A DNA stretch of 64,000 nucleotides from a virus. Both the position numbers and the translations under genes were made by a program. The stretch's first letter is position 1. Every line of letters begins with the position of its first letter. The notes below the pieces were generated by a model. The model was not told where the DNA came from, ran no database searches, and worked only from the letters and a program-made list of their open reading frames with translations. The stretch is from IMG/VR virus record IMGVR_UViG_3300045988_176028, one strand, 5' to 3'. This document shows, in pieces, positions 5,167 to 63,683 of this stretch.

Positions 5167-5370
5167 TGGATGCTCTAATCCCTTGTGGGAGTAGGTCTAA
5201 GAGCACTGGTAATAGTATACAATAGATACAATAGTATACATAAGTATTTGTGGTACCGAATTTCTAAATGCTCTAAAAAACGAAAAATCGTTTGATTCAA
5301 AAAACATGGAATGATTTTTTACGATTTTTCTCCGACGCGTCTCAATGCTTTCGAAACCAGATACTTCGTA

Positions 5371-5392
5371 TGCTATAGTGGAATAGTTTACA
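5371..5392 (+). promoter_or_regulatory. conserved promoter/leader motif copy
   Basis: TGCTATAGT-GGAATA-GTTTACA, with an extended -10 followed by the conserved downstream box. Confidence 0.6.
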
Positions 5393-5511
5393 CAAGAAAA
5401 AGAGCTTTTCGCCAAACCATAAAAAACGGTTTCGCTCAAAGTCCTCACCCCAAAAAACCAGCTAAACTGGATATGTCCGCAACGAACCAAAACTGTCAAA
5501 GGAACGAAAGC

Positions 5512-26800: not shown

Positions 26801-27572
26801 CTATAGGCGTGGAAGCGCCTTGCCTCCTCCACTGGTTTGAGATTTTAACGTCGAACGTGACCGGCTCATTAGTGGCCTCCAAGCCTTTGACGCCTTTTGC
26901 ATGGTCGGTGGAGGTGTTCGCCACGTTGATGGTCAGATGGGAGAGGACTCCGGTCACTTTGCCCGCTGTCTTGTTTATCGCATCATCATCCTTGGATTCT
27001 CCGAAATCGTAGGTGCCGGATTGGATTCGTTTCAAGCTCGCCAATTCGATGTTCCATCGTGGCGCGGCGCTAACGGTGACGGTTTCCAACTGTTTGGTGA
27101 CTGCCTCGCTATCAGTATTGTGTTCCATACTGGCTTGGACAGTCGGATGAATCTTGGTTCCATTAGGTGCGCCATACACGTTGATGGGCAGATTGACGGT
27201 AGCCGCGCCCGGAACGACGGTCGGATTATCCTTTGTCCCATTGATGTGACGCCAGCATGTCAACGTCTGGTATTTAGCACCTTTGACATCCTCATATCCT
27301 ACCTTGTATCCGTATCCTGCGGCTGTGTCCATCCAAAGCATTTCCTTGGTGGAGAACTCAGCCACGCTTGTATTGAATGTCATGGAGAATTTGAATTTGA
27401 TTCTGGCGTCCTTGTAGTAATCTTTACTGTTCTTTGACGCCATGGTGTAGGAGATGGTGTAGTTCAAGGAATCGTAGGAGCGGACGATGCTGTTATCGAT
27501 GCTTGAATCGTCTCCGGGATTGTCGTCTTTGTCGAATGGTGCTGTTCCCGTGGTCTTCGAGACTGTGGACAC
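23838..27572 (-). CDS. large cell-wall-anchored adhesin-like protein (main reading frame)
   Basis: 1244 aa. SdrD/Cna-B-type fold near the C-terminus (VSGIVWYDKDGNGIRED...TYRIVGIPAGSGY). Sorting signal MPFTGG, then a TM helix and RKH tail. The frame stays open upstream to the G-tract at 27709. Confidence 0.8.
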   Translation of the reverse strand: MSTVSKTTGTAPFDKDDNPGDDSSIDNSIVRSYDSLNYTISYTMASKNSKDYYKDARIKFKFSMTFNTSVAEFSTKEMLWMDTAAGYGYKVGYEDVKGAKYQTLTCWRHINGTKDNPTVVPGAATVNLPINVYGAPNGTKIHPTVQASMEHNTDSEAVTKQLETVTVSAAPRWNIELASLKRIQSGTYDFGESKDDDAINKTAGKVTGVLSHLTINVANTSTDHAKGVKGLEATNEPVTFDVKISNQWRRQGASTPIANQPNSLQPLAWSIANGSNSWMAIFHKYPSDRSNTKEAETFNSRKKNDNASEWKMTQETKNGYIILHLTVSHLDQYYNPNNKDQQNGILNWASAGIDLVNPTKINNKNLADQYGSDLNLQQDVWDMNLQASSVSGIKAKSAPSDSSNQSIISDDETGVSIPLYVSGMASEYNQGIEYGCAGWEWQDTQTRDSSCILFQQKGSSVHDGSDIAVRGQKVMLASRISYTQNKTNLPVIRTRLMKIDSTVLEPYENASTWNRASLGDGKNIFSESTLAYGVKKDGKAWSSDTEQAKAGIGYLNYYNSISEAKKHGEIVAILATSYNAAPYNSSWMEGNEGIGRDFFGLDVQVKTGREIINKTAQYTVQSLMWTRKDLAAKAGLDADNASNKDWANWISKNKLDPAELVKQVAPTGRVDSTPYQKAKWDDVQGYVGGDTADRHYGDSLHIVAEIAQVSKSTDQSDGNKGSKQTYDIDNGQRYVDWKLDLNMASNLYGRDTVDTKTDMTVTDTLPSKLHYLPSTAYLGGDYKENTPSQGSVANGTRIEPNATLNADGTTTLVWHLDNIDTSKQYTIHYSTSIGDATDPDNDVVNAEQLTNKVSVSTYRSPVRPKMDLTHSEYTIKISRLELTTLAIKADPLVNEVNSALHWKSIKTNNLETPLSNPIATAIMPNTANTLSSYHGDWVLAGIHISPRNGSQLGDGHLVYSTDSKYLTTDPSNIKTTDVKDWKTLPFDSTTGIAAIPQNLHPTAWAWVGDKPLPGGSSLMFDITIQPSNNRPADLYSIRWGDGYNKTDADVTVVQRVVSGIVWYDKDGNGIREDTDALASNVTVTLTDSNGTPVLGYDGKPLADTTGKDGTYRIVGIPAGSGYQVRFSPGRRDSWLKLKVTAKNAKGSTKATNSAADPISDTSGMKGAYINLNDFPSPSQMASPVYEDVYENCGIIRVVMPYLETPIASMPFTGGRLLLVLAAISSLSLVVGLVLLRPQKTGRKH

Positions 27573-38053: not shown

Positions 38054-40717
38054 TCAGGCGTCATTCCGACTGATGGAACGCTCCACTCCAACGAAGCCAA
38101 CACCCATCATCAGAGCGACGATGGACACTGCGGCGATACCCGCCACATCCACGCCGGTGGCGGCAAGATTATCCTCGCCAGTGGCCGTGACGGTCTTATT
38201 GTCGGCGTCCACCTTATATGTGGTGGTCTTATGAGCCTTCTTATCGGCGGTCTCGACCTTGGACTCGTTCTTCTTCGCGGAAATGGTAGCGACCGTCTGC
38301 GAGGAACCATTATCCTTGCCGGTATCGGTCTTGCCAGTGTCCCCCTTGGAAGTTCCAGTGGATGTCGAACCGTTTGGCTTGTCCGAATCATCCGGAGTGG
38401 AAGGCTTGGAAGAATCATCATCGACCGAGAAACCGGGGTCGACGATATCACCCTCGCCCGGCTTGGTGGCGATGCCGTCAAGAGCGTTCTTCGCATCCGT
38501 CAGAGCGGCCTCGGTCTGCTTCTTGTCGGCCTTGGCCTTGTCCAGCTTCGCGTTCGCGTCGGCCAGCGTCTTGTCGGCGTCGGCCTTAGCGGCCTTGGCC
38601 TTGCCCAAGTTGGCTTGAGCGGTCTTCTGCTCGTCCTGCGCCTTGGACAACGTCTTCTCCGCTTCCGTCAGCTTCTTCTGGGCTTCGGCCAGCTTCGCGT
38701 TCGCGTCGGTGTATCCGTCCAGCTTGGCTTGGGCTTCCTTGACCTGCTTCTTGGCTTCGTCCACTGCGGCCTGAGCCTTGTCCACGTTCGACTGGGCGGT
38801 CTTCACCTGCTGGTTCGCGGAGTCGAATTCGCTCTGGGCTTTCTTGGTAGTGGACTGCTTCTGCTCGTACACGGTCTGCTTCGCGTCGGCCTCGTCCTTC
38901 GCCTGAGCGTAGGTGCTATCGGCGGTCTTACCGGCCTTGACTGCGGCATTGTATGCGTCGAGAGCCTTCTGGTAGGCTTCGTCCTTGGCCTTGGCGGTCT
39001 TGGCCGCTTCGCCGGCGGTCTGCTGTGCGGACTGCGCGCGTTCCTGTAGTTCGGCAAGCTCCTGCTGGGCCTGTTGCGCGGCCTTCTTCGCCTCGTTCGC
39101 CTTGTCGAGAGCCTTCTGGTACGTGTCGGCGGCGGAGTCCAGCGCGTTCTTGTAGGAGAGAATCTGCTGACGGTACTCGTCCACGGAAACGCCACTGGTG
39201 TACAGGTATTTCTGGCTGAAGTTCTGTGCGGCGGTCAGCGAACCTGTGATTGCGAAACCGGTGGTGTCGCAATCCGGGTCGATGATGTTCAGATAGTGTC
39301 CGGTCTGCTCGTAGATGTCCGGATACTTCATGTAGATTTCCACGGCGGTCATGTTGCGCAGTTCAGGATTCTTCTCCGCATACTGGTCGAACACGGCCTT
39401 CTCTTCCGTATACCAGCCGTCATACGGGTTCTCGTAACCCCAAGCGAGGTTCTGGGAGGTTCCAGTGAACACGTGCCCAGTATTCTGAGAATACGTATTG
39501 TAGTCGGCGGCAAGCTGCGCGTCGGCGGTGTCCGCATCGTTGACCGTCCACTCCCGCAGTCCGAGGCTACGGCGAATCTCATTGCCCTTGTCAATCATGT
39601 CGAGAGCATCGAGCATGTTCTGCAAGCTGGTTGCGGAGTTTTCCTCACCAATCTTCACCCAATCCTCGTTCTGATACTTGACGAGCTGGTCGAGGGCGAA
39701 CTGGGTGTCCTCGTTCTTGTAACTGGAGGCAAGCTTCCACTGGTAGAAGCCGATGGAGCCGGACGCCAGCTGCTTGTCCGCGTTGTCGGCGGCGGCTTTC
39801 TTCGAATCCGCGTCGGCTTGAGCGGTGTTGGCGGCCGTGTTCTTCGCGTCCGCGTCCTTCTGCTTCTCGCTGATGCCGTTCTTCGCGTCCGAAGCGTTCT
39901 TGTCGGCGGTGGTCTGCGCGGTGTCGGCGTCGTTCTTCGCGGCTAACGCGGCTTCGAGTTCGGCCTTGAGCTGGCTGATGGTCTTCTGGGATTCGTCGGA
40001 CTTGGCCTTGGCGTCCGAAGCGTTCTTGTCGGCCTTGTCCTTGTCGGATTTGGCGGCGGCTTCGTCCTTCTGAGCGGCGGTCAGACTATCGGCCTTCTTC
40101 TGGGCTTCCTGCTGGGCCTTCTTAACCTGCTGGTTGGCGGATTCCAACTGCTTGGTGGTCTGGTCGAGCTGGCTGTTCGCGTCGGAGAGCGCCTGTTGGG
40201 CTTTCTTCTGGTTTTCCGGATTGGTGGCTTCGCTGGCGTTCTGCCGTGCCTGATTCAGATTCGTCTGAGCCTGATTGACGGTGGTCTGCGCGTTCTGAAC
40301 CTGCTGATTGGCGGCGTCCAGAGTGGTCTGGGCGTTGTCCACCTGAGTCTGGGTCTGGTTGACGGTGGTCTGCGCGCTGTCAACGTTGGTCTGTGCCTGA
40401 TTCAGGTTTGTCTGTGCCTGATTGTCGTTGGCTTGGGCTTCGTCCACCTTGGCCTGTCCGTCGGACACGGGGTCTGACTGTGCGGGGGTCGTGGTGGCCG
40501 TAATGGTATTGTCCGGCGTAGTGGCGGTCTGGGAGGTTGCCTGTGTGGCCTGTGCCACGGTGTCCTGAGTCTGGGATACCGCGTTCTGCGCCTGTTCGAT
40601 AGCGCCGTTCACGTCCGGCTGGATATTGTTGCCGTCATCCGCGAACGCGGTGGCCGGTGCGGCGAGTGTCGCAACCGCCACGGTCGTGGCGATGAGCGTC
40701 TTCTTGACGTTTGCCAA
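38054..40717 (-). CDS. LAXTG-anchored coiled-coil surface protein with central CAP/SCP (PR-1-like) domain
   Basis: TTG start with AAAGGAG RBS. Signal peptide ...ATLAAPATAFA. AQTN/AQTT heptad-like repeats. CAP-like region ending GHYLNIIDPDC. C-terminal LAATG, TM helix and charged tail. Confidence 0.8.
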   Translation of the reverse strand: MANVKKTLIATTVAVATLAAPATAFADDGNNIQPDVNGAIEQAQNAVSQTQDTVAQATQATSQTATTPDNTITATTTPAQSDPVSDGQAKVDEAQANDNQAQTNLNQAQTNVDSAQTTVNQTQTQVDNAQTTLDAANQQVQNAQTTVNQAQTNLNQARQNASEATNPENQKKAQQALSDANSQLDQTTKQLESANQQVKKAQQEAQKKADSLTAAQKDEAAAKSDKDKADKNASDAKAKSDESQKTISQLKAELEAALAAKNDADTAQTTADKNASDAKNGISEKQKDADAKNTAANTAQADADSKKAAADNADKQLASGSIGFYQWKLASSYKNEDTQFALDQLVKYQNEDWVKIGEENSATSLQNMLDALDMIDKGNEIRRSLGLREWTVNDADTADAQLAADYNTYSQNTGHVFTGTSQNLAWGYENPYDGWYTEEKAVFDQYAEKNPELRNMTAVEIYMKYPDIYEQTGHYLNIIDPDCDTTGFAITGSLTAAQNFSQKYLYTSGVSVDEYRQQILSYKNALDSAADTYQKALDKANEAKKAAQQAQQELAELQERAQSAQQTAGEAAKTAKAKDEAYQKALDAYNAAVKAGKTADSTYAQAKDEADAKQTVYEQKQSTTKKAQSEFDSANQQVKTAQSNVDKAQAAVDEAKKQVKEAQAKLDGYTDANAKLAEAQKKLTEAEKTLSKAQDEQKTAQANLGKAKAAKADADKTLADANAKLDKAKADKKQTEAALTDAKNALDGIATKPGEGDIVDPGFSVDDDSSKPSTPDDSDKPNGSTSTGTSKGDTGKTDTGKDNGSSQTVATISAKKNESKVETADKKAHKTTTYKVDADNKTVTATGEDNLAATGVDVAGIAAVSIVALMMGVGFVGVERSISRNDA

Positions 40718-51320: not shown

Positions 51321-51355
51321 TTTGAGTTCCTTCTTTTCTGGTTGAAAAACACGAG

Positions 51356-51428: not shown

Positions 51429-51485
51429 GATGGGGCGAAACCTATGGGGAATCGCCACTGTAAAGGAAGAACCATTCATGGTTCG

Positions 51486-51568: not shown

Positions 51569-51686
51569 GGGATGAGCCTCCGCAGAGGCTCAGCAGACCG
51601 TTCCCGCGACTGGGCGGGTCGGCTGAAAACTGGAACCGCCATGAGACGGCTCCGAAGCCTTCTCGAACAACCTGTAAGAGAAGTAG

Positions 51687-51757
51687 TATGTCACGCTGGA
51701 ATCGAACCAACATCTACGGTTTTGGAGACCGTGGCTCTACCGTTGAGCTAGTGACAT
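51687..51757 (-). tRNA. tRNA-Trp(CCA)
   Basis: 71 nt. A1-U72, anticodon loop CTCCAAA, T-loop TTCGATT. Confidence 0.75.
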
Positions 51758-52543: not shown

Positions 52544-52808
52544 GTCGCGCGATTGAGGGACGTGCGTTTTCGTTCTTACAGAACGACCCATTGATTTTCG
52601 TACCACCCTCCCCGCTTACAAATCAACAAAAGTCAGAGATTGGAGGAAACTGATTTTTTGTTTACAAAGTTTTTCCTTCAAGTTTGGAGAGTCTGTTTTG
52701 CAGGAGTCGCTTAGCACGCACATCAGTTTCCTCTATTTAGAGTTTGGATAAAAGCCCGTAAGGCAATTATCCAAACATTGTTTTGAATACGGTATGCATT
52801 CAAAATCG

Positions 52809-53177
52809 TGGAGCCGGAGGGAATCGAACCCTCGTCCTTGAAAACGTTGATGATGTTTTCTACATGTTTAGCCATCTCATTTATATATGTTGAAAGTTCC
52901 AGTCGAAGAGGCACCCCGGAACAGTTTTGCAACTCAGTCATGAAACGATGAACAGTTGCCGTTCACCGAGTTTTTGCTGTCCTTTCTTTTTCAGAATCGC
53001 CTTACAGCAAATCAGTGACCCTGTTCTTCCTTCACCGTGTTTCAGGCGGCGAGCTGGAAGTTACGCGAAGAATTCGTCTTGGCGTTTATTGTTTGACATG
53101 GATTGATGACGGTTGTCCACGTCAGCCTCCGACATGCTTGCATTATCTTGATTTTCAAGTCGAAACCTGTCGGCCCC
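52809..53177 (-). ncRNA. ssrA: tmRNA (SsrA), tag AKTNSSRNFQLAA
   Basis: 5' end GGGGCCGACAGGTTTCGAC. 3' end GAGGG-TTCGATT-CCCTC-CGGCTCC-A. The acceptor stem has a G3-U70 pair. Internal frame GCC AAG ACG AAT TCT TCG CGT AAC TTC CAG CTC GCC GCC TGA lies at 53083..53042. Confidence 0.85.
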
Positions 53178-53773: not shown

Positions 53774-54046
53774 ATGCAGTCCAAGCAAATACGAGAAGCA
53801 ACCACAGTCGCATATATAGAAGACCAGCTCAAGTCGGAAGACCCCACTCTCATACAGTCGGCCACGGGGAATCTAGCCAGACTGTATGGAATGACCACGC
53901 TCTCCCAACTGACCGGTTTGGCGAGGCCATCCCTCTACCGAAGCCTATGCGGTCAAGGAAACCCATCCTTCCAAACCATGTGCAGGGTATTGGACGCCAT
54001 GGGGTACACAGTCACGGTGAAGCGTAAGGAGACGGAACATGAGTGA
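53774..54046 (+). CDS. HigA-family HTH 'addiction module antidote' protein (TIGR02684-like), no adjacent toxin
   Basis: ARLYGMTTLSQLTGLARPSLYRSLCGQGNPSFQTMCRVLDAMGYTV closely follows the family signature (...GLSRESLYKALSGEGNPSFDT...). It overlaps the repA start by 8 nt. Confidence 0.7.
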   Translation: MQSKQIREATTVAYIEDQLKSEDPTLIQSATGNLARLYGMTTLSQLTGLARPSLYRSLCGQGNPSFQTMCRVLDAMGYTVTVKRKETEHE

Positions 54047-55094
54047 CAGGCAAGTGGAACAGAACGCTCTAGACATTGACATACCCGGCATGGAGTTGGA
54101 TGTTCGACGGGTCAACCTGTTGGACGATATAGAAGCCCGCGAGCCGAACAGTATGGAAATATGGTATGGGCATTCCATTCTCACCGCCACACTGTTTCCA
54201 CCAGCCCAACCGTCCGATGATGTGGATTTCGTCAGCAAGTCGAACGGACGGTTGGAATACATGCTTGAAGCTGGCGTGACGGGTGATGGGGATGATAGGA
54301 AACGCCGGTTCCCGTTCGGCAAATATCCGAGACTGTTGATGGCTTGGATGGCTAAGCAGATTCGTGCGGCGAAAGGCCATAAGACGAGGAATGTTGACCC
54401 GGAGACGAAGACCATCACCATTCCAAGCATCTACCAGTTGTGTGAGGAAATGGGATTGCCGCATGGCGGGCGTACCGCGAAGAGCGTGCAGGAACAGTTG
54501 GAACTGTTGTTGGCTTGCCGTATCAGTATTCGCGCGTCCGGCACGGGCAAGGGGTTGAATGTGAGGGATACGGCCTATCTGCCTATCGTTCAGGCCGTGC
54601 GCATTATCAATGATGAGAAGAATGTGGGCTATTCCGGTGCCACGTTCCGTCTGACCGATGAAGTGTATGAACGGTTGAGTCGTGAGTCGGCTCCGTTCGA
54701 TACGAGAGTGTCCACTTACCTTTTGAAAGGCAGGTCGGTCATGCCTTACGACATTTACATTTGGCTGACTGGCAGTATGAAGAATCTTCGCCGTGACCTT
54801 CCGGTGAGTTGGGATTGGCTGTATGAACGGTTCGGAGACCAGATTGCGGTCAAGAAGTCTTTTCGGCGCATGTTCCGTCAATCGTTGGAGAAGGTCAAGA
54901 AGGTGTATCCGGGGTTGAATGTTGAGTGTCCAACGTATGAGGATTACATTATTCTGCATCCGAGTCCCACGTCGGTTCCTACCCGTGCTGTCCGTGAGGT
55001 TGAGGTGGGTGCTAATGGGGATGTGTTCGAGGTGGCTTTGCATTCGTTGCAATCGGTTCAACGGAAAGGTGTACGAAAGGCCACGTCAGATTGA
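54039..55094 (+). CDS. repA: plasmid replication initiator, RepA_C (PF04796)-like, second copy
   Basis: 351 aa. FPFGKYPRLLMAWMAKQI hallmark and later PYDIYIWLTGSM. Iterons lie immediately downstream. Confidence 0.7.
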   Translation: MSDRQVEQNALDIDIPGMELDVRRVNLLDDIEAREPNSMEIWYGHSILTATLFPPAQPSDDVDFVSKSNGRLEYMLEAGVTGDGDDRKRRFPFGKYPRLLMAWMAKQIRAAKGHKTRNVDPETKTITIPSIYQLCEEMGLPHGGRTAKSVQEQLELLLACRISIRASGTGKGLNVRDTAYLPIVQAVRIINDEKNVGYSGATFRLTDEVYERLSRESAPFDTRVSTYLLKGRSVMPYDIYIWLTGSMKNLRRDLPVSWDWLYERFGDQIAVKKSFRRMFRQSLEKVKKVYPGLNVECPTYEDYIILHPSPTSVPTRAVREVEVGANGDVFEVALHSLQSVQRKGVRKATSD

Positions 55095-55101
55095 GTTGAC
55101 C

Positions 55102-55519
55102 GTGGCCTTTCGGACACCTTGGAGAGTATTGGTGTCTGAAAGGCCATGTGTGGGCGGGTGTCTGCGTGGCTTTTCGGACACCTTTCGCATGGCTTTTCAA
55201 ACACCTCCCAACGGGTTGAACGGTTTCTCGACGTGGCCTTTCACGCACCCTCGTATACGCTACGGATTGCACGCGCCTTTCCAGCTTTAATTTATCCACT
55301 AGTTTTTCGTTGGAATTTCAACCATTCCACACGCTTATCCACATTTCCACAGGCAGAACGTCAAACATTCCGTGGACTAACAGGCACCTTTAGTGGCGTT
55401 TCAAACACCATGACGATTATGAATCATGCCGGACATGGACTATCAAACACCATCAGCATGGACTATCGAACACCCTTTTATGGGGTTTCCGACACCTTTC
55501 CGTGGACTAACAGGCACCT
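55102..55519. repeat. iteron field of candidate oriV-2
   Basis: At least 9 copies of rTGG(c/a)yTTTCrrACACC, for example at 55102, 55131 (inverted), 55165, 55188, 55232, 55393, 55434, 55457 and 55481. CGTGGACTAACAGGCACCT occurs twice (55371 and 55501). Confidence 0.7.
55292..55343. promoter_or_regulatory. two DnaA-box-like sites in the AT-rich core between iteron clusters
   Basis: TTATCCACT at 55292..55300 and consensus TTATCCACA at 55335..55343. Confidence 0.55.
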
Positions 55520-56326: not shown

Positions 56327-56869
56327 CTATTTTCCTAGTTCGCTGAGCTTGGTCGGCGCTTTCTTATGTTTGAGCGGCAACGGTTTCCCGTCCGTCTGAT
56401 TATAGACGCAGTAGTTGCCGTTGTCGGTTTTGTGGATTACCACGTTGACCTGCCGGTTGTCCTTCGTGTAGACGGAGCATTCGGCGTCCACACCGTTCTC
56501 GATGTCCTTCATTGAGTCCACGGTGTATTCGCCCCGTCTCGCGGAATGTATTATCCCTTTGGTTGTTGGGATACTACTGTCTGTATCGGAGTACTCCTTG
56601 TGTGTGCAGTTGATGCTGGACAGTCCGTACACGTATTCCAAGCTTTGGTTGAGGGACGGGGCTTTCGGCATTTTCACCGTGGTCGCGGTGACGAACGAGA
56701 GGAAGAACACGAGAACGGAAACAGTCGAAACCAGTGTCCGACCCTTGTTCACAGCGAAAGCGCCGACAACAAGAGCAATGACACTAACGATAATGAGAGA
56801 ACTGATAATAAAATCGCCCGTACTCGCTTGGTCGGCAACCTCCTGCCAAGCGGAGAAATCCGCTGTCAC
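56327..56869 (-). CDS. 2-TM paralogue family member D
   Basis: MTADFSAWQEV, two TM helices, conserved Cys pair, NYCVYNQTDGKPLPLK. Confidence 0.6.
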   Translation of the reverse strand: MTADFSAWQEVADQASTGDFIISSLIIVSVIALVVGAFAVNKGRTLVSTVSVLVFFLSFVTATTVKMPKAPSLNQSLEYVYGLSSINCTHKEYSDTDSSIPTTKGIIHSARRGEYTVDSMKDIENGVDAECSVYTKDNRQVNVVIHKTDNGNYCVYNQTDGKPLPLKHKKAPTKLSELGK

Positions 56870-57645
56870 TTCTGAACCTTTTCCAGTCGGGTGGACAGTT
56901 CCGCCAATCCGTCGATGATTTTATTCTCCTCCACGGTTTTCCTCCCACCGGCTCGACCGTCACGGAAGCGTTTCTCGCACTCGCCCATACCCCTGCGGAT
57001 ATCCTCATTGGTGATGCCATAGGCGATAGCGAACGTTCCCAACGCTTCCACCACGTCGCAATACTCTTCGACCAACCGACTGTAAATCCGCTTGTCGGAA
57101 GTGCCGTCGGCAACCCAATCCATTCCCACTGCGGCGAGTTCAGCAGACTCCTCCAACAGTTTCCGCCCCTGCCGGTCGGATGGTTCCGCATATTCCGGAG
57201 CGAATGTTCTGACGGTGCCAAGACTAGCCAACCCGTGTTCAGTCATTTCCACGCCACGCCCGATGAACTTGTAGCCGGGATTCTGTTCGCAATAGTCGCG
57301 CACGTCACGCAACCATTGGATAGCATTGGGGATACTCCCCCAGCGGATGACCTTCCCCGTGTTGTCGAGGAAGTATTTCTGTTCCAATTCGTTGATGGAT
57401 TTTTTTTCGATTTCATCCAACGCTTCGTCAATAATGTCCTTGACCACGATGGCGGACTTGCCGTGCAGGTCTGTGGTGGGGCGCACATGGAACGCTTGGA
57501 AGAAATCGGAATAGTTGAAGGTCGGATTACAGGAAGTGCCTACCATATCCAAATTTTCCAGTCCACGGTCTTGCCAATCGCAAGCGACCATGAACACCAT
57601 ATCGTCCGGAATGTCGGAACGGACTATCGCAATATCGTAACTCAA
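56866..57645 (-). CDS. hypothetical protein with C-terminal MazG-like helices (259 aa)
   Basis: LLEESAELAAV...LVEEYCDVVEAL. Confidence 0.55.
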   Translation of the reverse strand: MSYDIAIVRSDIPDDMVFMVACDWQDRGLENLDMVGTSCNPTFNYSDFFQAFHVRPTTDLHGKSAIVVKDIIDEALDEIEKKSINELEQKYFLDNTGKVIRWGSIPNAIQWLRDVRDYCEQNPGYKFIGRGVEMTEHGLASLGTVRTFAPEYAEPSDRQGRKLLEESAELAAVGMDWVADGTSDKRIYSRLVEEYCDVVEALGTFAIAYGITNEDIRRGMGECEKRFRDGRAGGRKTVEENKIIDGLAELSTRLEKVQK

Positions 57646-57941
57646 ATCGCACCTATTCTTTCAAAGAGTGCCCAACAGAACATGATAAAAAGGATTGTCG
57701 CCATGATGATGAACGCCACCATCAGGGCGACGGCCAAATGATAAAGGAACCGCCAGCCGTAGATTCGTACTCCCAGCCAACGTTTCTGCCCCGAAGTGTA
57801 GGAGTGTTCCAAAAACGCTTTTTCCAAGAGCGTGACGGAACGGTCGAACAATACCGCCATCGTGTGCGACATGAGCACACCGGCTATACAACCTATGCTC
57901 AATACCAGTCGGACGAGTATGCCAGCCATGATTCCATTCAT
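57642..57941 (-). CDS. membrane protein (99 aa)
   Basis: ATG 57941 in an ATGA overlap with the upstream stop. Three TM helices. Confidence 0.45.
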   Translation of the reverse strand: MNGIMAGILVRLVLSIGCIAGVLMSHTMAVLFDRSVTLLEKAFLEHSYTSGQKRWLGVRIYGWRFLYHLAVALMVAFIIMATILFIMFCWALFERIGAI

Positions 57942-58204
57942 TCCTCTAAGTTCAGTACCGCCAGCTCGCAATCCAATCGTCGGGCAATGTCCAGTTTGGT
58001 ACCGGAGAGTCGGAATTGCGTGCCGACGGCGGTTCCGTTTCGATACTTTTGGGCGACCATATTCGACTGGATGTGAATGATGTTCCGTGCATGCTTGTAA
58101 CGCCACACGTTGCCTCCACCATCACTGTCGAGGTTCATTCTCATGTTACGGTAGAAGTCCACGTTGTCGTACAGGTCTCGGGGGGTTAACGGGTCAGTCT
58201 GCAT
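57938..58204 (-). CDS. hypothetical protein (88 aa)
   Basis: Operon context with overlapping stops and starts. Confidence 0.45.
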   Translation of the reverse strand: MQTDPLTPRDLYDNVDFYRNMRMNLDSDGGGNVWRYKHARNIIHIQSNMVAQKYRNGTAVGTQFRLSGTKLDIARRLDCELAVLNLEE

Positions 58205-58391
58205 CGAGCATTTCCTTCCACTTTTCCAATTCGTTCAAATCGATAGAGAATTGTTTATGTTCGGTGCAGTCGGAAAAGTCGATGGTCAGATACGGTTTTC
58301 CACGGAAAGTGTCACTGGACACGATGACGGTGTCACTGCCCAGTCCGCCCTTCTCATGTAACAGTTTGTAATATTTTTTATCCGGAACCAT
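58194..58391 (-). CDS. hypothetical protein (65 aa)
   Basis: Operon context. Confidence 0.45.
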   Translation of the reverse strand: MVPDKKYYKLLHEKGGLGSDTVIVSSDTFRGKPYLTIDFSDCTEHKQFSIDLNELEKWKEMLDAD

Positions 58392-58415
58392 CGGCTTTCC
58401 CTTTCTAATATCAGG

Positions 58416-58646
58416 TCAGGAGAGTTTGACCAGAATTCCGTAAGCGATGATGAGAACGAACCAGACGACAGCCGCCACTACCGTCCAACGGTTCAGGTTC
58501 TTTTCCGCCACGCCCGAGCTTCCCGCCGAACCTGTCAACGATTCAGCGAAATTCGAGAAACCGCCTCCCTCGCCTTTGTGCATGAGAATGAGGGGAACGA
58601 GCATGAGACTCAACACGGCGATGAATCCAAGAAGGATATGTTTCAT
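58416..58646 (-). CDS. secG: SecG-like preprotein translocase subunit (76 aa)
   Basis: AAAGGAG RBS precedes ATG 58646. LMLVPLILMHKGEGGGFS...GVAEKNLNRWTVVAAVVWFVL parallels actinobacterial SecG (..LLH..KGGGLS...EKNLDR.T..). Confidence 0.7.
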   Translation of the reverse strand: MKHILLGFIAVLSLMLVPLILMHKGEGGGFSNFAESLTGSAGSSGVAEKNLNRWTVVAAVVWFVLIIAYGILVKLS

Positions 58647-58648
58647 AA

Positions 58649-59065
58649 TTACTGCTCCTTTGTTTTGTTGTAGAAGACCAGACTTTTCCATCCGCTCGCA
58701 AGCCGCCAATGTTCGCCCGGCAACCGCATAAGCAACGGTTGCAGGATGCCTTCGACGATGAGCTGGTCTAGTGACCCGTGTACGGCGACCGTCCGTCCTC
58801 GCACGATGGTGCCGTCCACGGTGACGGCCTTGACCATGCGGCTGTCCAAAACCTTCGGTTCGACGTTCTCCCAGTCGAGGTCGGCGGGCTGGTCTTCCTG
58901 CGAGTCCAAGGCGGCTTTAGCGAGACGGCGGAACGAGTCATGTATCGCGTCCATCTGCCCGTCCCACAAGTCTCGTATCTGTTCTTCGCTCGGATTGAAG
59001 TCGGCCCAGTTGGTTTGCGCGGCGAAGACCGCAATTGCGGTTTTTTCGATGCGTTCATCCGGCAT
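58649..59065 (-). CDS. hypothetical protein (138 aa)
   Basis: Lies between the SecE-like and SecG-like genes. Confidence 0.5.
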   Translation of the reverse strand: MPDERIEKTAIAVFAAQTNWADFNPSEEQIRDLWDGQMDAIHDSFRRLAKAALDSQEDQPADLDWENVEPKVLDSRMVKAVTVDGTIVRGRTVAVHGSLDQLIVEGILQPLLMRLPGEHWRLASGWKSLVFYNKTKEQ

Positions 59066-59327
59066 AGAATTTTCCTTCCTTACTGCAATCCAACACCTGC
59101 AATGCGCTCACATGGTCGGCTTCCTCCAATAGGCCGGACGGGGCTTTCATGATGATGGGCACCATGACTCCCATGTAGACGCCTATCGCCCCACCGGGAG
59201 CTATGATGATGGTTCCGTCCACGACGGTGCCGTTGTCGAATCGGGCGATGACGCGTTGCCCTTCGAGTTCGGTCGTTGTGGCATGCCGCCAGTCCACGGG
59301 ATTGTAGACGATGCCTTCGCCGCCCAT
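59055..59327 (-). CDS. hypothetical protein (90 aa)
   Basis: ATG 59327 in a TGATG junction with the SecE-like stop. Confidence 0.45.
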   Translation of the reverse strand: MGGEGIVYNPVDWRHATTTELEGQRVIARFDNGTVVDGTIIIAPGGAIGVYMGVMVPIIMKAPSGLLEEADHVSALQVLDCSKEGKFYAG

Positions 59328-59578
59328 CAGCCGAACACCCACAATGTCAGCTTGCCCAGTCCGAAGTCCATTCCTGAGACAAGCGCCATGAGCAGCAGCA
59401 CGAAGATTCCGGACGCGACGCACCAGCCCGCCCATTCGCGGACGGTGGGCGTGACTACCTTGCGGATTTCGGCCACAACCTGTTTGACGAAACGGATGAC
59501 GCCGAGGAATCCTTGACCGATTCTGACGAACGGATTGTTTTTCCCATCGGCAATGACGGGCGTGGCTTTCTCAACCAT
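59327..59578 (-). CDS. secE: SecE-like preprotein translocase subunit (83 aa)
   Basis: GGAAGGA RBS. VVAEIRKVVTPTVREWAGWCVASGIFVLLLMALVSGMDFGLGKLTLWVFG parallels actinobacterial SecE (..ELRKV.WP.R.E......VV........D......LWVFG). Confidence 0.7.
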   Translation of the reverse strand: MVEKATPVIADGKNNPFVRIGQGFLGVIRFVKQVVAEIRKVVTPTVREWAGWCVASGIFVLLLMALVSGMDFGLGKLTLWVFG

Positions 59579-59789
59579 AGATTTCCTTCCATTGAATCAG
59601 ACCGTCGATAATTTTCGCGGCGGTTCGATTGTCCAAATATTTCTTATTCAAGTCTTCCTTATAGCGGACTACGGGAGGGCAGTTTTCGAGGTTTTTCACG
59701 TTATTAAGGTCGGACTGGTCGGTGAGTTTGAGAATTAGTCGAATCTGAGCTTCCGTGGCCTTGCGTTTCTGTCCCGCGTAAATCATCAT
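59571..59789 (-). CDS. hypothetical protein (72 aa)
   Basis: Operon context. Confidence 0.45.
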   Translation of the reverse strand: MMIYAGQKRKATEAQIRLILKLTDQSDLNNVKNLENCPPVVRYKEDLNKKYLDNRTAAKIIDGLIQWKEIYG

Positions 59790-60271
59790 TGCTCTCCCCG
59801 GCCAGAGTGGTGGACGTTTGTCGTTCGGAAGTGTTCCGATAACAGGTCTTTCGTGTTTTTTCTTAATTGGGCTGACGCGAGTTCCTGCACTTGAGAGACC
59901 GCTATCACATAGTCGGTCAGCTGGCTGGCGAATTCCTTATCATGATGGCGTCGAGCCAGTTCGCAGACAGCGTCGATTGCCGAAGTGTGGAAAATGTCCG
60001 ATACTGGTTCGATGTAGTCACCGTCTGCCATGAGGGCACGGTATTCGAATCGGTTTCCGCAGTTGATTTCCCGAACCATGCCGTAGTCCTTACCGTCAAC
60101 CACGACTTGATAGTCTTTAGTTTTGCTGGAGGATTGCGTGTAGCAGGGGAAGTTGATGGCAGACAGTGTTGCCGAATACTGGTCTTGTACCATCGCCAGT
60201 TCTTCGTCCACCCAGCCGAGTGAACGTAGTTGGATGGGGTTTGCCGGTTTTTTGGGGTTTTGTTTTTCCAA
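59786..60271 (-). CDS. hypothetical protein (161 aa)
   Basis: TTG start with GGGAGGAAAGC RBS. First gene after the promoter at 60297. Confidence 0.55.
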   Translation of the reverse strand: MEKQNPKKPANPIQLRSLGWVDEELAMVQDQYSATLSAINFPCYTQSSSKTKDYQVVVDGKDYGMVREINCGNRFEYRALMADGDYIEPVSDIFHTSAIDAVCELARRHHDKEFASQLTDYVIAVSQVQELASAQLRKNTKDLLSEHFRTTNVHHSGRGEQ

Positions 60272-60296
60272 GCTTTCCTCCCAAAGACTGCTTATG

Positions 60297-60318
60297 TGTG
60301 GACTTATCCAGTATAGCA
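60297..60318 (-). promoter_or_regulatory. conserved promoter/leader motif copy
   Basis: Minus strand reads TGCTATACT-GGATAA-GTCCACA. Confidence 0.65.
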
Positions 60319-60346
60319 GAGTTTTCTTCGGAAGGAAAGCCGACGT

Positions 60347-60610
60347 TCAGGCGAGAATGTTCAACGACTTGAAAAGCGTGTCCGCCAGATGATTGCCTCC
60401 ACCGTTGAGGCAAACCACCACATATTGGGGCAGGTTCACGAAATTCAGGCTTTCCACACGTAGACCATCCTCGGTCTTTTCCATACGGTATTCCAATTCG
60501 CCGTCGATGGTGGTTCCGCTTACGGTGATGGCGATAGCCCTTTTACCGGCCAGTTCCTCGATAGGCTTGTCCATCCAATCGGAAATGGTCTCGTGTACGT
60601 CAGTATGCAT
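60347..60610 (-). CDS. hypothetical protein (87 aa)
   Basis: GGAGG RBS precedes ATG 60610 within ORF 60347..60670. Confidence 0.5.
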   Translation of the reverse strand: MHTDVHETISDWMDKPIEELAGKRAIAITVSGTTIDGELEYRMEKTEDGLRVESLNFVNLPQYVVVCLNGGGNHLADTLFKSLNILA

Positions 60611-60626
60611 ATAATCCTCCAAGACT

Positions 60627-61184
60627 CTACTTATTACTCGCGTCCGCGAACAGTATGGCACTGCCTTCATTATGAAGCTTGTCCGCTTGGCGTTTGATAT
60701 CGCTCGTCGTATACCAGAAAGTGAATTCGGTCGGGTCGGTTCCGGTAATCAATTCCTCAACCATGTTGATTCCCCAAGATGGAATGGTGTCGTATACGCG
60801 GTACAAGTCAAGTTTCTTCACATCCTTGTCCACGATGCCGCCGACGTGGATGCCGTGGGGCGCATCCCCCAACGGATGATAGTCAGCGAGCACGCTGATG
60901 GCGTGTGCGACTTCGTCCCGAATCTCCTCAAGGGTTTCCAATTTCAGTGGACATTCCTCGCTGAACAGTGGAAGGTAATGTTCTTGGGCGAGCCAGAATG
61001 GGAACTCCTCCAAATCGTACTTGTCCATGTCGTGACGACTCAACGGCTTCTCATAGTCGATGATTGCGGTGAGCTTGCCGGTCGGGTCAGCCAGTGGACG
61101 CTCGTGAATGGAGATGAGTTTTTCGTCGGGATACTGATGGTCGTATAGCGACTTGGTGTAGGCGTATGAGTATTTTTTGGTCAA
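60627..61184 (-). CDS. hypothetical protein (185 aa)
   Basis: TTG start with GAAGGA RBS. First gene after the promoter at 61209. Confidence 0.55.
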   Translation of the reverse strand: MTKKYSYAYTKSLYDHQYPDEKLISIHERPLADPTGKLTAIIDYEKPLSRHDMDKYDLEEFPFWLAQEHYLPLFSEECPLKLETLEEIRDEVAHAISVLADYHPLGDAPHGIHVGGIVDKDVKKLDLYRVYDTIPSWGINMVEELITGTDPTEFTFWYTTSDIKRQADKLHNEGSAILFADASNK

Positions 61185-61208
61185 CGATTGTCCTTCACTC
61201 TTGTATGA

Positions 61209-61230
61209 TGTGAATGTTTCCAGTATAGCA
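61209..61230 (-). promoter_or_regulatory. conserved promoter/leader motif copy (ATTCACA variant)
   Basis: Minus strand reads TGCTATACT-GGAAAC-ATTCACA. Confidence 0.6.
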
Positions 61231-61247
61231 GAGGGAACGGTGAAACG

Positions 61248-61529
61248 TCAGCGGTCAGTGACCTTGACTTTGTTATACGCAAGAATCGACTCGAACAGTC
61301 GGAGTGGATTGCGGGAGTCCAGCTTGTACTGATGGTGATTCCTCGCGGTTTCCGTTTCGAGGAATCGTCCGCTCTCGGACGGCTCTTCCACAATCATGGG
61401 AACCCAACGCCATTTCTCACGGCCTTTGCTGTTCTCCCAGACGATTTCCCCGTTTTCCAATACCCGCTTGTAGGCGGTCTTGTCGGGGAATGACGAGTCT
61501 ATTCGTGCGACTAGATTCAATCGGCTCAT
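61248..61529 (-). CDS. hypothetical protein (93 aa)
   Basis: ATGA overlap with the upstream zinc-ribbon ORF. Confidence 0.5.
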   Translation of the reverse strand: MSRLNLVARIDSSFPDKTAYKRVLENGEIVWENSKGREKWRWVPMIVEEPSESGRFLETETARNHHQYKLDSRNPLRLFESILAYNKVKVTDR

Positions 61530-61681
61530 GGTTTAATTCCTTCTTCTCTCAGTTCTTCATAGTCTTGCGGCGTGAGGAAAAGCCAAGCTCCACAGTAGGG
61601 ACACTTGACCCTATTGGCATCGACGGTGTTCTTGCAATACCAGCAGGTGACGTACCATCCGTTTACATATCGGTTTTGCAT
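61526..61681 (-). CDS. zinc-ribbon protein (51 aa)
   Basis: MQNRYVNGWYVTCWYCKNTVDANRVKCPYCGAW. Below the track cutoff. Confidence 0.4.
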   Translation of the reverse strand: MQNRYVNGWYVTCWYCKNTVDANRVKCPYCGAWLFLTPQDYEELREEGIKP

Positions 61682-61842
61682 TGTTGCTCCTTTTTCTTGA
61701 AATCAGAAGACAGTGGTCTTCTAATTTTCGCAAAGAAGTCGATGACTTCGATAAGATAGAGGAACATTTCAAGCAGGACAAAGAAAACGAATCCCAGTAC
61801 GTCAAAAGTCCAGTTTTTCAGTTTTTTGAATATGTTGGACAT
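61663..61842 (-). CDS. small membrane protein (59 aa)
   Basis: AAGGAGAGCA RBS precedes ATG 61842. The longer track ORF would include its own promoter. Confidence 0.4.
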   Translation of the reverse strand: MSNIFKKLKNWTFDVLGFVFFVLLEMFLYLIEVIDFFAKIRRPLSSDFKKKEQQCKTDM

Positions 61843-61866
61843 TGCTCTCCTTGTCTTAATAGATTG

Positions 61867-61885
61867 TGTGAACAACCCCAGTATA
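61867..61885 (-). promoter_or_regulatory. conserved promoter/leader motif copy
   Basis: Minus strand reads TATACT-GGGGTT-GTTCACA. Confidence 0.65.
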
Positions 61886-61958
61886 ACCAAAAAAAGCAAG
61901 ACTGGCAATCACGCCAAAAACCGGAAAACAAACAGGCTAATCGTATCTTCAGGCAACA

Positions 61959-62189
61959 TCAGCGGATTACTTTCTCGCTCTGATTTGGCACTTCCAACGG
62001 CATAGAACCCGAATATCCCAACTGTTCCTCGCAGTGTGCGATGACGGCTTGCAACGCGAACCGTTCCCCTACAAGAAAATTCTCGTCCGAAGCGGTGGGA
62101 ATCATCTCGTTGATTCGGGCTATCTGTTCCTTGCACCAGTCTATGGTGTCATGCAGGGTTTTGTCTTTCTGAGTGACGTTCACCGCCAT
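61959..62189 (-). CDS. hypothetical protein (76 aa)
   Basis: GAAAGGAAAACAAG leader before the ATG. Confidence 0.5.
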   Translation of the reverse strand: MAVNVTQKDKTLHDTIDWCKEQIARINEMIPTASDENFLVGERFALQAVIAHCEEQLGYSGSMPLEVPNQSEKVIR

Positions 62190-62249
62190 CTTGTTTTCCT
62201 TTCTTCTGTTAACGGGGCTAAAATCGACTTTTTGTTGAAAATGACCCCG

Positions 62250-62363
62250 TTAACTTTCATTTTTCTGACGATAGGGGTCAATGTCGGCGTTTTCGACCAT
62301 GCGTCCGTAGTCTTGACAACGGCACATGGATTGGATTTTTCGCATGTACTTTGGGTCTGCCAT
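62250..62363 (-). CDS. truncated paralogue (37 aa) of 21492..21758
   Basis: MADPKYMRKIQSMCRCQDYGRMVENADID matches MADPKYMRKIQDMCRCQDCGLMADNADID. Confidence 0.35.
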   Translation of the reverse strand: MADPKYMRKIQSMCRCQDYGRMVENADIDPYRQKNES

Positions 62364-62367
62364 TGAT

Positions 62368-62811
62368 TCAGTCCTTCTTGGACGGGGCTTTCGTCAAGAC
62401 CGGCTTGACCAGATTCCCTTGAGAATCGTACACTCTGACGGTGTTCTTCTCCGAGTCGCCTACCACGGTGATGACCTGCCTCTTACGACCATGATTGGAG
62501 TAAGCCACGCACGGGGTGTCTCCGTCCCGCACGTCACCAACCCCTTTGCATTGTACGGATTCGTACCCGTAGGATGTAGCCAATGCTTCCTCGAAGGTCG
62601 GGTGCTGGGTCTTCTCCGCTCCCAGCGTCATAATCAACGCCACTACACTGATAATGCATCCTACTTCTAACAGTCCGCCTACGATTTTCTTAATCTTTTT
62701 ATCGTTAAATAAAAAGATAATTCCGGAAATGAAGGTCACTGTTATAACCAAGGTAAGAAACGCCGCAAAAAGAGCGAAAGGGTCTTGACTCCACTCGTTG
62801 AAATCTACCAT
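62368..62811 (-). CDS. 2-TM paralogue family member E
   Basis: MVDFNEWSQDP, two TM helices, conserved Cys pair, VRVYDSQGNLVK. Confidence 0.6.
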   Translation of the reverse strand: MVDFNEWSQDPFALFAAFLTLVITVTFISGIIFLFNDKKIKKIVGGLLEVGCIISVVALIMTLGAEKTQHPTFEEALATSYGYESVQCKGVGDVRDGDTPCVAYSNHGRKRQVITVVGDSEKNTVRVYDSQGNLVKPVLTKAPSKKD

Positions 62812-62817
62812 GTTTTA

Positions 62818-63198
62818 CTACTCCTTCTGATTTTGGTTTTGTTGAGGTGGAACCACTTCCAATCGGAAGGTTCTCTTGACGTTTGCCTTAATCTTGTATC
62901 TGCCGTTCTTGTCGGTGACGCTTCTGGCGGGATTGCCGACACTATCTTTGTAGGGAGTGCCATCGTCATGGACGACCGTGACCGTCACGTTGGGAACGGG
63001 ATTGCCCTGCCAGTCGGTGACGGTGGCCTCTAAGGTGATTGACCGTCCCCAGATTTCGGTTTTCAACCGATTGAGTCCATTTGTCAATGGTGGTGCGACG
63101 ATTAGTCCGATAACGCTTAATGCCACGACCAGTTGAGCTAGGCTCAAAACCAGTCGTGTCCAGAGTAGGATACCGTCGGTTCTATCATTTTCGTTCAC
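62818..63198 (-). CDS. TM-anchored protein with carboxypeptidase-regulatory/Cna-B-like Ig fold (126 aa)
   Basis: One TM helix, then VTDWQGNPVPNVTVTVVHDDGTPY...TDKNGRYKI. Confidence 0.5.
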   Translation of the reverse strand: MNENDRTDGILLWTRLVLSLAQLVVALSVIGLIVAPPLTNGLNRLKTEIWGRSITLEATVTDWQGNPVPNVTVTVVHDDGTPYKDSVGNPARSVTDKNGRYKIKANVKRTFRLEVVPPQQNQNQKE

Positions 63199-63683
63199 TT
63201 CCGGCCTGTCCTGCTCAACTCGAAACCGTCGAGATACAACTGGAACAGGCTCACATATTGGCCGTCTTCTATATCATCCTCCGGTTTTGCGTACAGTTGA
63301 GTGTTCAGAACCGCGACCGGCAGACCGGTATGCTCCTCCTGTTCGATGTGGAAGGGTATTTCCTCCTGACCGTGAGCGTTCTCGCGGACTGCCACACCGT
63401 AATCACCCACCTGTGGTTGGGTGGATGAACTGCTATCGTCAATATCCTCATAGGTGAGATAGAACGGCAGAAGCAGTGGATTGGGAACATTCTTCAACGG
63501 GATAAATTCTATACCGGCCTGTTGGGAGTGCTGTTGGCAGACGCCACTGTAACTGTCCCCTTCACCGTAATCCGGCCAGTGGCGGATTGCCACGATGGGT
63601 TTACTGCACGGGTATATTTGACCGTCCGAGTCAACCATGGTTTGGGCGCAACCTACGTCAATGAGTTCCTTAAGATTCAACAT
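63195..63683 (-). CDS. hypothetical protein (162 aa)
   Basis: Overlapping stop/start with both neighbours. Confidence 0.55.
   Translation of the reverse strand: MLNLKELIDVGCAQTMVDSDGQIYPCSKPIVAIRHWPDYGEGDSYSGVCQQHSQQAGIEFIPLKNVPNPLLLPFYLTYEDIDDSSSSTQPQVGDYGVAVRENAHGQEEIPFHIEQEEHTGLPVAVLNTQLYAKPEDDIEDGQYVSLFQLYLDGFELSRTGRK

Follow-up and report, generated by a model that had tools for sequence, protein, structure and literature searches.

Why should a mobile element carry its own genes for two subunits of the SecYEG channel, a machinery that is essential and usually treated as a fixed, single-copy part of the core genome? The question is raised by a stretch of 64,000 nucleotides from the IMG/VR virus record IMGVR_UViG_3300045988_176028 (hereafter "the window", meaning the whole stretch), in which an earlier note, made from the sequence alone, had proposed accessory secE and secG genes that remodel or supplement the host channel for the secretome of the element. 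We found that the window is a diverged and very prevalent Bifidobacterium adolescentis-type member of the pMP7017 megaplasmid family, and that this plasmid family has long kept its own SecE and SecG. Judging from comparative sequence evidence, these proteins are probably functional plasmid-resident paralogs that supplement protein export of the host by way of the host SecY.

Both proposed genes exist as minus-strand open reading frames (ORFs) that contain the peptides quoted in the earlier note:

59327..59578, minus strand: secE paralog of 83 amino acids (aa), with a variable N-terminal tail, an amphipathic/hinge segment (EIRKVVTPTVREWAGW) and one C-terminal transmembrane helix
58416..58646, minus strand: secG paralog of 76 aa, with two transmembrane helices around a Gly-rich cytoplasmic loop (HKG(E)GGGFSNFAESLTGSAGSSGVAEKNLNRWT)

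The length of SecG is counted here from the ATG behind an AAGGAG Shine-Dalgarno sequence. Profile searches, read against curated family thresholds (the Pfam gathering score and the NCBIfam cut-off), assigned SecE to PF00584 with 43.5 bits (cut-off 22.7; profile positions 1-55 of 55) and to TIGR00964 with 40.0 bits (cut-off 27.55), and SecG to PF03840 with 54.9 bits (cut-off 29.2; profile positions 1-69 of 70) and to TIGR00810 with 55.5 bits (cut-off 30.85). The profile searches that the earlier note had suggested thus bear out its identification of both proteins, with significant matches that cover the SecE profile completely and the SecG profile almost completely. The hydropathy of SecE reveals a single C-terminal transmembrane segment at approximately residues 48-77, after EIRKVVTPTVRE, which is the layout of the bacterial minimal SecE (a cytoplasmic amphipathic/hinge segment followed by one C-terminal transmembrane helix), while SecG has transmembrane segments at approximately residues 1-26 and 50-76 that are joined by the loop HKGEGGGFSNFAESLTGSAGSSG, i.e. 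the two helices and Gly-rich cytoplasmic loop typical of its family. SecE is colinear with the solved Geobacillus/Bacillus-type chains 7xha_E and 5eul_E over residues 27-82 (with a single-sequence E-value of only 0.25-0.4), and SecG with the E. coli SecG chain 2akh_X over residues 5-70 (with a marginal single-sequence E-value). At NCBI, a protein identical to the SecE of the window is named SecE [Bifidobacterium] and is found on at least 1000 contigs.

The replicon to which the pair belongs is revealed by its neighborhood. The secE and secG genes are located 3-4 kb from the gene of a replication initiator, in a region that also holds iterons, a transfer-messenger RNA (tmRNA) and a tRNA array:

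54039..55094, plus strand: RepA replication initiator (WP_254883520.1, B. adolescentis), 56% identical to RepA of pMP7017
55101..55519, no strand assigned: about ten iteron-like 20-nt direct repeats (CGTGGCCTTTCGGACACCTT and variants), just downstream of repA
52806..53177, minus strand: tmRNA (Rfam RF00023, 118.7 bits; also found by ARAGORN), with the tag peptide AKTNSSRNFQLAA
50053..52543, minus strand: array of nine tRNA genes

A RepA_C domain was found on related contigs, and the iteron-like repeats at 55101-55519 are likely, from their sequence and position, to constitute the replication origin; a further iteron-like repeat site is present at 56179-56198. A 412-aa ORF at 50475-51713, in overlap with the tRNA genes, is probably not a real gene. 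The megaplasmid pMP7017 from B. breve has the same RepA-tmRNA-tRNA layout and a homologous tmRNA, which is highly transcribed (PMC10832533), and its authors read the plasmid tRNAs and tmRNA as translational support (PMC10832533). In NCBI, the exact RepA and SecE proteins are assigned to Bifidobacterium adolescentis or "MULTISPECIES Bifidobacterium", each on at least 1000 public contigs, and metagenomes of human-gut cohorts contain the identical SecE on contigs of 205-230 kb. All features that characterize the pMP7017 family are therefore present (a RepA_C homolog, iterons, tmRNA, a tRNA array, a size above 100 kb and a Bifidobacterium host), and it is the combination of RepA identity, layout, NCBI names and contigs of 205-230 kb that places the window in this family. 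A megablast search with positions 56-62 kb against PLSDB plasmids and phages returned nothing; the relatives are visible at the protein level only.

The location of the pair also speaks about its origin. The earlier note had considered that the segment might be captured chromosomal DNA, which would bring along nusG, rplK and their neighbors. In the chromosomal Bifidobacterium controls, secE is followed by nusG, rplK and rplA (locus L030) and secG comes after tpiA (locus L031). This housekeeping synteny is not seen in the window, where the two genes are flanked by hypothetical ORFs, RepA, iterons, the tmRNA and tRNAs; with neither nusG-rplK-rplA nor tpiA near secE or secG, the plasmid locus is not a captured chromosomal segment. 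The opposite case is illustrated by a Tsukamurella record labeled as a plasmid ("plasmid 23"), which does contain the chromosomal-type block secE-nusG-rplK-rplA. We also rejected a phage origin: a tblastn search against 50,697 phage records retrieved nothing for SecG and a single weak match for SecE. This match, a SecE-like stretch at 3335-3496 of MT835589.1 (38% identity over 73% of the query, E = 4e-6), comes from human faeces, in a "Bacteriophage sp." record of 30.6 kb that has no annotation.

Analysis of the related plasmids reveals that the pair is a regular component of the family. With tblastn we found secE and secG, named as such by the PGAP annotation pipeline, on pMP7017 and on five B. 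longum megaplasmids, and the pair is present in 6 of 6 Bifidobacterium megaplasmids of PLSDB that carry this RepA. Four further metagenomic lineages (L019, L020, L021 and L022, of which L019 has a SecE named from B. adolescentis) also possess secE followed by secG on the same strand, with RepA encoded 2-4.5 kb downstream on the opposite strand wherever the contig is long enough (L020-L022 and the lineage of the window). The order and the strand of the two genes are constant, and the distance between them varies from a spacer of 17 or 31 nt in L019, L020 and L021 to one inserted ORF in pMP7017, two in the window and three in L007 and L022, i.e. 0 to 3 inserted ORFs. On the simplest reading of these arrangements, an ancestral adjacent secE-secG pair would have received variable ORFs later.

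In the window itself, the gap between the two genes is 681 bp, in agreement with the spacing of about 700 bp in a long operon of small unknown ORFs that the earlier note had described:

56327..63683, minus strand: the "long operon" of small, mostly unannotatable co-directional ORFs, including secE and secG
59571..59789, minus strand: 72-aa ORF upstream of secE, whose stop codon overlaps the secE start (ATGGTTGA)
59055..59327, minus strand: 90-aa ORF of unknown function between secE and secG, also called as a gene on six metagenome contigs
58649..59065, minus strand: second ORF inserted between the two genes, 138 aa, function unknown

The ATG of the 90-aa ORF overlaps the stop codon of secE (TGATG), the 138-aa ORF overlaps the 90-aa ORF by 11 nt, and the ATG of secG lies 2 nt past the preceding stop codon, with its AAGGAG 8 nt ahead; these overlapping or nearly abutting stops and starts make the region a translationally coupled operon, and no consensus terminator was detected between 59.6 and 58.4 kb. 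In L002-L007, L020 and L021, the start of secE is likewise overlapped by a gene of 70-71 aa. The 90-aa ORF shows a weak match to phrog_21331 (function unknown) and is missing from L019, L020 and L021, where secE and secG are adjacent, while Pfam and PHROG scans of the 138-aa ORF gave no match, and the same two databases provided no function for the small ORFs neighboring secE and secG. A 107-aa ORF located 1 kb upstream (60347-60670, minus strand) matches phrog_21331 as well, and by this shared match the 90-aa and 107-aa ORFs appear to be small paralogs within the operon.

In order to infer the history of the plasmid proteins, we compared them with the chromosomal ones. Their nearest non-plasmid relatives are the chromosomal SecE and SecG of Bifidobacterium, with approximately 60% identity, which belong to the same families and have the same topology; the chromosomal genes are single-copy and lie in separate contexts, whereas the plasmid copies are neighbors and evolve faster. 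In a neighbor-joining tree, all plasmid SecE sequences form a clade that is sister to chromosomal Bifidobacterium SecE; the SecG tree is less resolved, with the pMP7017 and B. longum-type proteins nearer to the chromosomal type, and both trees, based on about 70 aligned residues, are indicative only. The best explanation of these relationships is that plasmid SecE and SecG derive from an ancestor in the Bifidobacterium lineage and are old and diverged. Their divergence is uneven. The transmembrane/C-terminal segment of SecE (FVLLLMALVSGMDFGLGKLTLWVFG) retains 93% protein identity to the chromosomal counterpart and a segment of SecG (AGSSGVAEKNLNRWTV) retains 100%, while in both cases the third codon positions are only 47% identical. 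The second half of the SecG loop is likewise almost the same in plasmid and chromosomal proteins. This combination indicates selection on the protein and led us to reject recent gene conversion as the source of the host-identical segments. As a separate observation, a number of SecG sequences (P0126, P0128, P0130, P0133, P0154-P0156, P0190 and P0200) consist of a plasmid-type half and a chromosomal-type half flanking AGSSGVAEKNLNRWTV; all of them are on metagenome contigs shorter than about 4 kb and are most likely assembly chimeras. A further sequence, P0132, is located on a longer contig (15.7 kb) and might be a genuine recombinant of plasmid types.

Could these genes be decaying or neutral hitchhikers from an old chromosomal capture, or dominant-negative subunits directed against the host or rival elements? 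We consider this very improbable, although a few features point that way. Pairwise dN/dS (the ratio of nonsynonymous to synonymous substitution rates, calculated with the Nei-Gojobori method for six lineages) is 0.21-0.43 for secE and 0.08-0.41 for secG, with dS of about 0.7-2, which exceeds the 0.06-0.11 found for repA within the clade of the window (against pMP7017, dS of repA is saturated). The length of the N-terminal tail of SecE varies, as does the number of ORFs inserted between the genes. Finally, the SecG of the window has a unique K26E substitution at a nearly invariant residue of the loop motif: codon 26 (58569-58571, minus strand) gives HKGEGGG in place of HKGKGGG, whereas of the 109 homologs compared, 101 have K at this residue, six have R, one has Q and only the window has E. 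The closest homologs (P0121 and P0122) carry K at this position, and contigs of the same lineage (L002-L007) differ from the SecG of the window by one residue; K26E may reflect an error of sequencing, or else a mutation of the strain with an effect on function. Against decay, however, stands the state of these tiny ORFs: in every lineage both are intact and pass the family thresholds, even though their synonymous sites are near saturation. The segments that contact SecY are 93-100% identical to the host proteins, the pair occurs in 6 of 6 isolate megaplasmids with this RepA, and the exact protein is found on at least 1000 contigs; as to interference, nothing supports toxicity. Both genes are thus under purifying selection, more relaxed than that on RepA, and there is no pseudogene in any lineage.

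If the two subunits are functional, which SecY do they join? The Pfam scan of 78 ORFs of the window found no Sec-related family beyond SecE and SecG, and no match to SecY, SecA, YidC, signal peptidase, signal recognition particle or SecDF was seen among the ORFs of the window (the ten largest and 66 further ones). A tblastn search with two SecY proteins gave nothing in the 64-kb window, in the flanks provided by L002-L007, or in pMP7017, whose full annotation lists secE and secG as the only sec genes; another Bifidobacterium megaplasmid, CP084013, is likewise without secY. The SecY-free stretch extends over 59 kb on one side of secE and about 10 kb on the other (4.4 kb in the window and about 5.6 kb in L002-L007). 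The situation is different in four B. longum megaplasmids (CP065398, CP065396, CP143940 and CP146883), which carry secY 23-33 kb from secE/secG, between a gene for a 160-aa hypothetical protein and a WhiB gene (7983-9353 of locus L027 in CP065398). Their SecY is 98-99% identical to the chromosomal SecY of B. longum (P0247), which marks it as a recent capture of a host gene, in contrast to the old secE and secG of the same plasmids. The search for secY or secA2 suggested by the earlier note thus ended with neither in the window or in pMP7017, and with a recently captured secY in the B. longum relatives.

These data bear on the possibility that the plasmid encodes a complete SecYEG, with its own SecY elsewhere on the replicon of about 220 kb, outside the window. 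The four B. longum plasmids provide a precedent, as do the adjacent secG-secY genes on megaplasmids of Arthrobacter, Pseudarthrobacter and Paenarthrobacter and the SecY-SecG-SecE operon of the Hodor plasmids (PMC12934698), and about 150 kb of the replicon lie beyond the sequence read. We nevertheless regard this arrangement as improbable, given the long SecY-free stretch on both sides of secE and the lack of secY in pMP7017 and CP084013. The contigs provide a further, weak argument: many metagenome contigs (loci L033-L072) end approximately 50-130 nt into secY, as expected of a repeat shared by chromosome and plasmid, whereas the lineage of the window assembles into contigs of 205-230 kb, which speaks weakly against a secY identical to that of the host. 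At the position where the B. longum plasmids have secY, the pMP7017-type loci have a 95-aa ORF, and a metagenome scan with the 160-aa protein that precedes secY retrieved loci of the B. longum and pMP7017 types only. One candidate for a diverged plasmid SecY (P0259, 456 aa) was discarded as chromosomal, being encoded in a ribosomal-protein operon. As neither the window nor the annotation of pMP7017 includes SecY, SecA, YidC or signal peptidase, pairing with the chromosomal SecY is the most likely arrangement; like the physiological benefit discussed below, it is read indirectly from patterns of conservation, such as the host-like membrane segments of SecE and SecG, and from gene content.

In E. 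coli, FtsH degrades SecY unless SecE is bound to it, and SecG stimulates translocation. As SecY in E. coli needs SecE for its stability, the supply of SecE can set a limit to how many stable channels there are. Once inserted into the host membrane, the plasmid SecE and SecG would join the SecY encoded on the chromosome in extra or hybrid SecYEG channels, and at a price of about 0.5 kb of DNA they could in this way make the channels more numerous or more active. The plasmid would gain added or tuned export capacity for its own Sec-dependent cargo, i.e. sortases, large wall-anchored surface proteins and membrane proteins of conjugation, and this cargo could be made without starving the secretion of the host itself. 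Such a role would follow a "bring your own housekeeping" logic, as with the neighboring tRNAs and tmRNA.

The cargo is represented in the window by the sortase and the two large wall-anchored proteins to which the earlier note had drawn attention, and which we could confirm from a Pfam match and from C-terminal anchoring signals:

5311..6699, plus strand: sortase (PF04203, 95.3 bits)
23838..27572, minus strand: 1244-aa surface protein with an SdrD_B domain and, at the C-terminus, MPFTGG, a hydrophobic stretch and a charged tail
38054..40717, minus strand: 887-aa protein with predicted secretion and sortase anchoring, a candidate translocon client

The 887-aa protein has a signal-peptide-like N-terminus and ends with LAATG, a hydrophobic stretch and a charged tail. 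On pMP7017 there are two sortases and giant proteins of the InlB-repeat and SpaA kinds. Supplementation of host export fits the tRNA and tmRNA neighbors, the Sec-dependent anchored cargo and the capture of an unmodified host secY by the B. longum plasmids; the last of these, an unmodified gene for the host channel, points to dosage.

The same cargo would also suit a more specialized arrangement, in which the plasmid SecE and SecG replace the host subunits on the host SecY and form a hybrid translocon, with an altered cytosolic face or gating, that favors plasmid clients such as very large sortase-anchored adhesins and surface factors of conjugation. The argument for it comes from the residues that distinguish the two groups (101 plasmid and 13 chromosomal sequences compared for SecE, 40 and 34 for SecG): the sites that are conserved but different cluster in the cytoplasmic parts, whereas the membrane parts resemble those of the host. 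In the cytoplasm-facing part of SecE, the plasmid proteins have R29, R47, W49 and V54 where the chromosomal ones have L, K, L and L, and A50-G51 in place of F-F; at position 49, W and L separate the two groups without exception. The SecG loop has F30, N32, A34, E35, G39 and S40 in place of chromosomal L, D, G, G, Q and N. The presence of a sortase and large wall-anchored proteins on the plasmid, with two sortases and giant proteins on pMP7017, is in agreement with a specialized channel, and for the SecYGE operon of the Hodor plasmids such a connection has been proposed in the preprint (PMC12934698). A comparable arrangement is that of the accessory Sec system, in which Asp4 and Asp5 accompany SecY2. 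In its strongest form, this alternative would have a mobile element reprogram an essential machine: the plasmid subunits would displace those of the host, R47, W49, A50 and G51 of SecE together with the SecG loop FSNFAESLTGS would change the coupling to SecA or the ribosome, or the gating, and the resulting channel would favor giant sortase-anchored proteins or conjugation factors. The orphan state of the pair would then amount to a parasitism of the host channel that is limited by host range, and some B. longum plasmids would later have become self-sufficient by capturing the host secY. We hold both the hybrid translocon and this strong form of it to be rather unlikely, if less so than a complete plasmid SecYEG. 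We saw no SecA2, no set of glycosyltransferases and Asp proteins and no unusual signal peptide, the N-terminus of the 887-aa protein being an ordinary one. The SecG signature is clade-specific, the proteins of pMP7017 and of the B. longum plasmids retaining the chromosomal-type loop GGGLSDMFGG. The SecY taken up by the B. longum plasmids is the unmodified host protein, which argues for dosage rather than altered specificity, and the secE-secG pair is not next to the surface-protein genes, from which it is separated by 19-54 kb in the window.

Supplementation of host export through the host SecY thus stays the reading that we favor, but several observations weigh against it. The dN/dS values of secE and secG are 3-5 times that of RepA, which indicates that the constraint is only moderate, and the plasmid-specific cytoplasmic residues fit specialization better than pure dosage. 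The SecG of the window, as the sole one among 109 homologs with E at position 26, may be an impaired copy. The part of the plasmid outside the sequence read could hold a diverged SecY or SecA. Finally, the universality of the module in the wider RepA family is not proven: seven other Bifidobacteriaceae loci with related RepA had no secE or secG within the available flank of at most 10 kb on each side of repA, a result that says little about absence, because several of the seven contigs are short (the RepA-anchored scan covered one genome per species).

Apart from the genes considered above, the window contains a type II CRISPR-Cas system and two more genes of the housekeeping type:

44361-47687: Cas9
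47778-48668: Cas1
49052-49537: CRISPR array of 36-nt repeats (AGTTTGAGCAAAAGGTAATACGACATATATTCAAAC)
27997-28854, minus strand: thymidylate synthase (Pfam E-value 8e-110)
29191-30894, minus strand: fused kinase and T4-type RNA ligase

The CRISPR type distinguishes the window from pMP7017 and the B. longum plasmids, which have type I-E. The domain composition of the kinase-RNA ligase fusion suggests a role in RNA repair, and three TnpB genes are also present. Homologs of RepA with 27-31% identity occur on Curtobacterium and Frondihabitans megaplasmids (CP126255, CP081962, CP126274, CP018784 and AP027733); of these, CP018784 is pCPAA3, cited in the pMP7017 paper as the other plasmid that bears a tmRNA (PMC10832533). 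The shared RepA hints at a wider superfamily of actinobacterial megaplasmids.

What would follow if the plasmid subunits indeed work with the host SecY? Pairing with the host channel would be a compact way of raising or retuning host export, with two genes of about 240 bp each, and would extend the idea that housekeeping genes on megaplasmids offset the cost of the plasmid. In Bifidobacterium this is of some relevance, since surface proteins, pili and conjugation are Sec-dependent and pMP7017 is under development as a genetic tool. The coexistence of old secE and secG with a fresh, host-identical secY provides a natural experiment on which subunits of the translocon are limiting.

The statement of the earlier note that no example had been described can be maintained neither for this plasmid family nor for others. 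RefSeq already lists proteins under these two names for pMP7017 and plasmids of B. longum; annotated secG-secY genes are present on Micrococcaceae megaplasmids, one of which, pACHL01, also has secE; and a 2026 preprint (PMC12934698) describes a SecY-SecG-SecE operon on gut megaplasmids and proposes essentially the same idea. The closest known system is that of pMP7017 and the B. longum plasmids, whose RepA, SecE and SecG are 53-56%, 56-59% and 57-61% identical to those of the window, and which share the secE-secG order and the RepA/tmRNA/tRNA neighborhood. The window represents a diverged B. adolescentis lineage with two unrelated ORFs between the genes, and lacks the recent host-derived secY of the four B. 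longum plasmids. The annotation of secE and secG on pMP7017 is automatic, and the pMP7017 literature that we searched, which comprised the transcriptome supplement and left aside the original 2015 paper (PMC4272746), makes no mention of SecE or SecG.

The Hodor megaplasmids (Yuan et al., bioRxiv 2026, PMC12934698) are conjugative plasmids of gut Bacillota, larger than 300 kb and with a Rep_3 replicon, in which a co-transcribed SecY-SecG-SecE operon, with trigger factor in addition, lies beside genes for sortase B and giant proteins; export of the surface module of the plasmid is the role proposed there for its sec genes (PMC12934698). They resemble the plasmid studied here as gut megaplasmids with SecE and SecG, with sortases, and with secreted or anchored proteins of very large size. 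The differences are that the window has secE and secG only, in the order E to G, with no SecY or trigger factor, that the host is an actinobacterium, and that the pair is near RepA, the tmRNA and the tRNAs, not near the surface genes.

The Micrococcaceae plasmids (375-440 kb) are likewise actinobacterial megaplasmids with diverged Sec genes among hypothetical ORFs, away from ribosomal-protein operons. They have adjacent secG and secY after a DUF2637 gene:

NC_011879, 11238-12836 (L024): secG-secY of pACHL01 from Pseudarthrobacter chlorophenolicus A6
CP099467 (L025): secG-secY of Arthrobacter caoxuetaonis
CP104273 and CP053545: secG-secY of Arthrobacter sp. zg-Y1110 and Paenarthrobacter sp. YJN-5

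The secE of pACHL01 is located 39 kb from secG-secY, next to a Bax-inhibitor-like gene. The plasmid SecY proteins are 71-87% identical to one another, which indicates that they are old and plasmid-specific. Their SecG proteins are 43-50% identical to that of the window, and the SecE of pACHL01 37%; a tblastn search of PLSDB with RepA found no homolog of the RepA family of the window on these plasmids.

The accessory Sec system is a second translocon for large surface adhesins with small SecE-like and SecG-like partners, Asp1-3 and glycosylation, and its genes lie next to that of a serine-rich-repeat adhesin. In Gram-positive cocci, SecA2 and SecY2 work with Asp4 and Asp5 (PMC5076819). None of the hallmarks of this system (SecA2, SecY2, Asp1-5 or glycosyltransferases) was present among the 78 Pfam-scanned ORFs of the window, and the likeness is a functional analogy only, as the proteins of the window are true members of the SecE and SecG families and not Asp4 or Asp5. 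What distinguishes the present case from all these systems is the maintenance of secE and secG without secY, in the window as in pMP7017, as an old and conserved pair on extremely prevalent plasmids of gut Bifidobacterium, together with its position beside the replication, tmRNA and tRNA genes and the independent, recent gain of a host secY in one sub-lineage.

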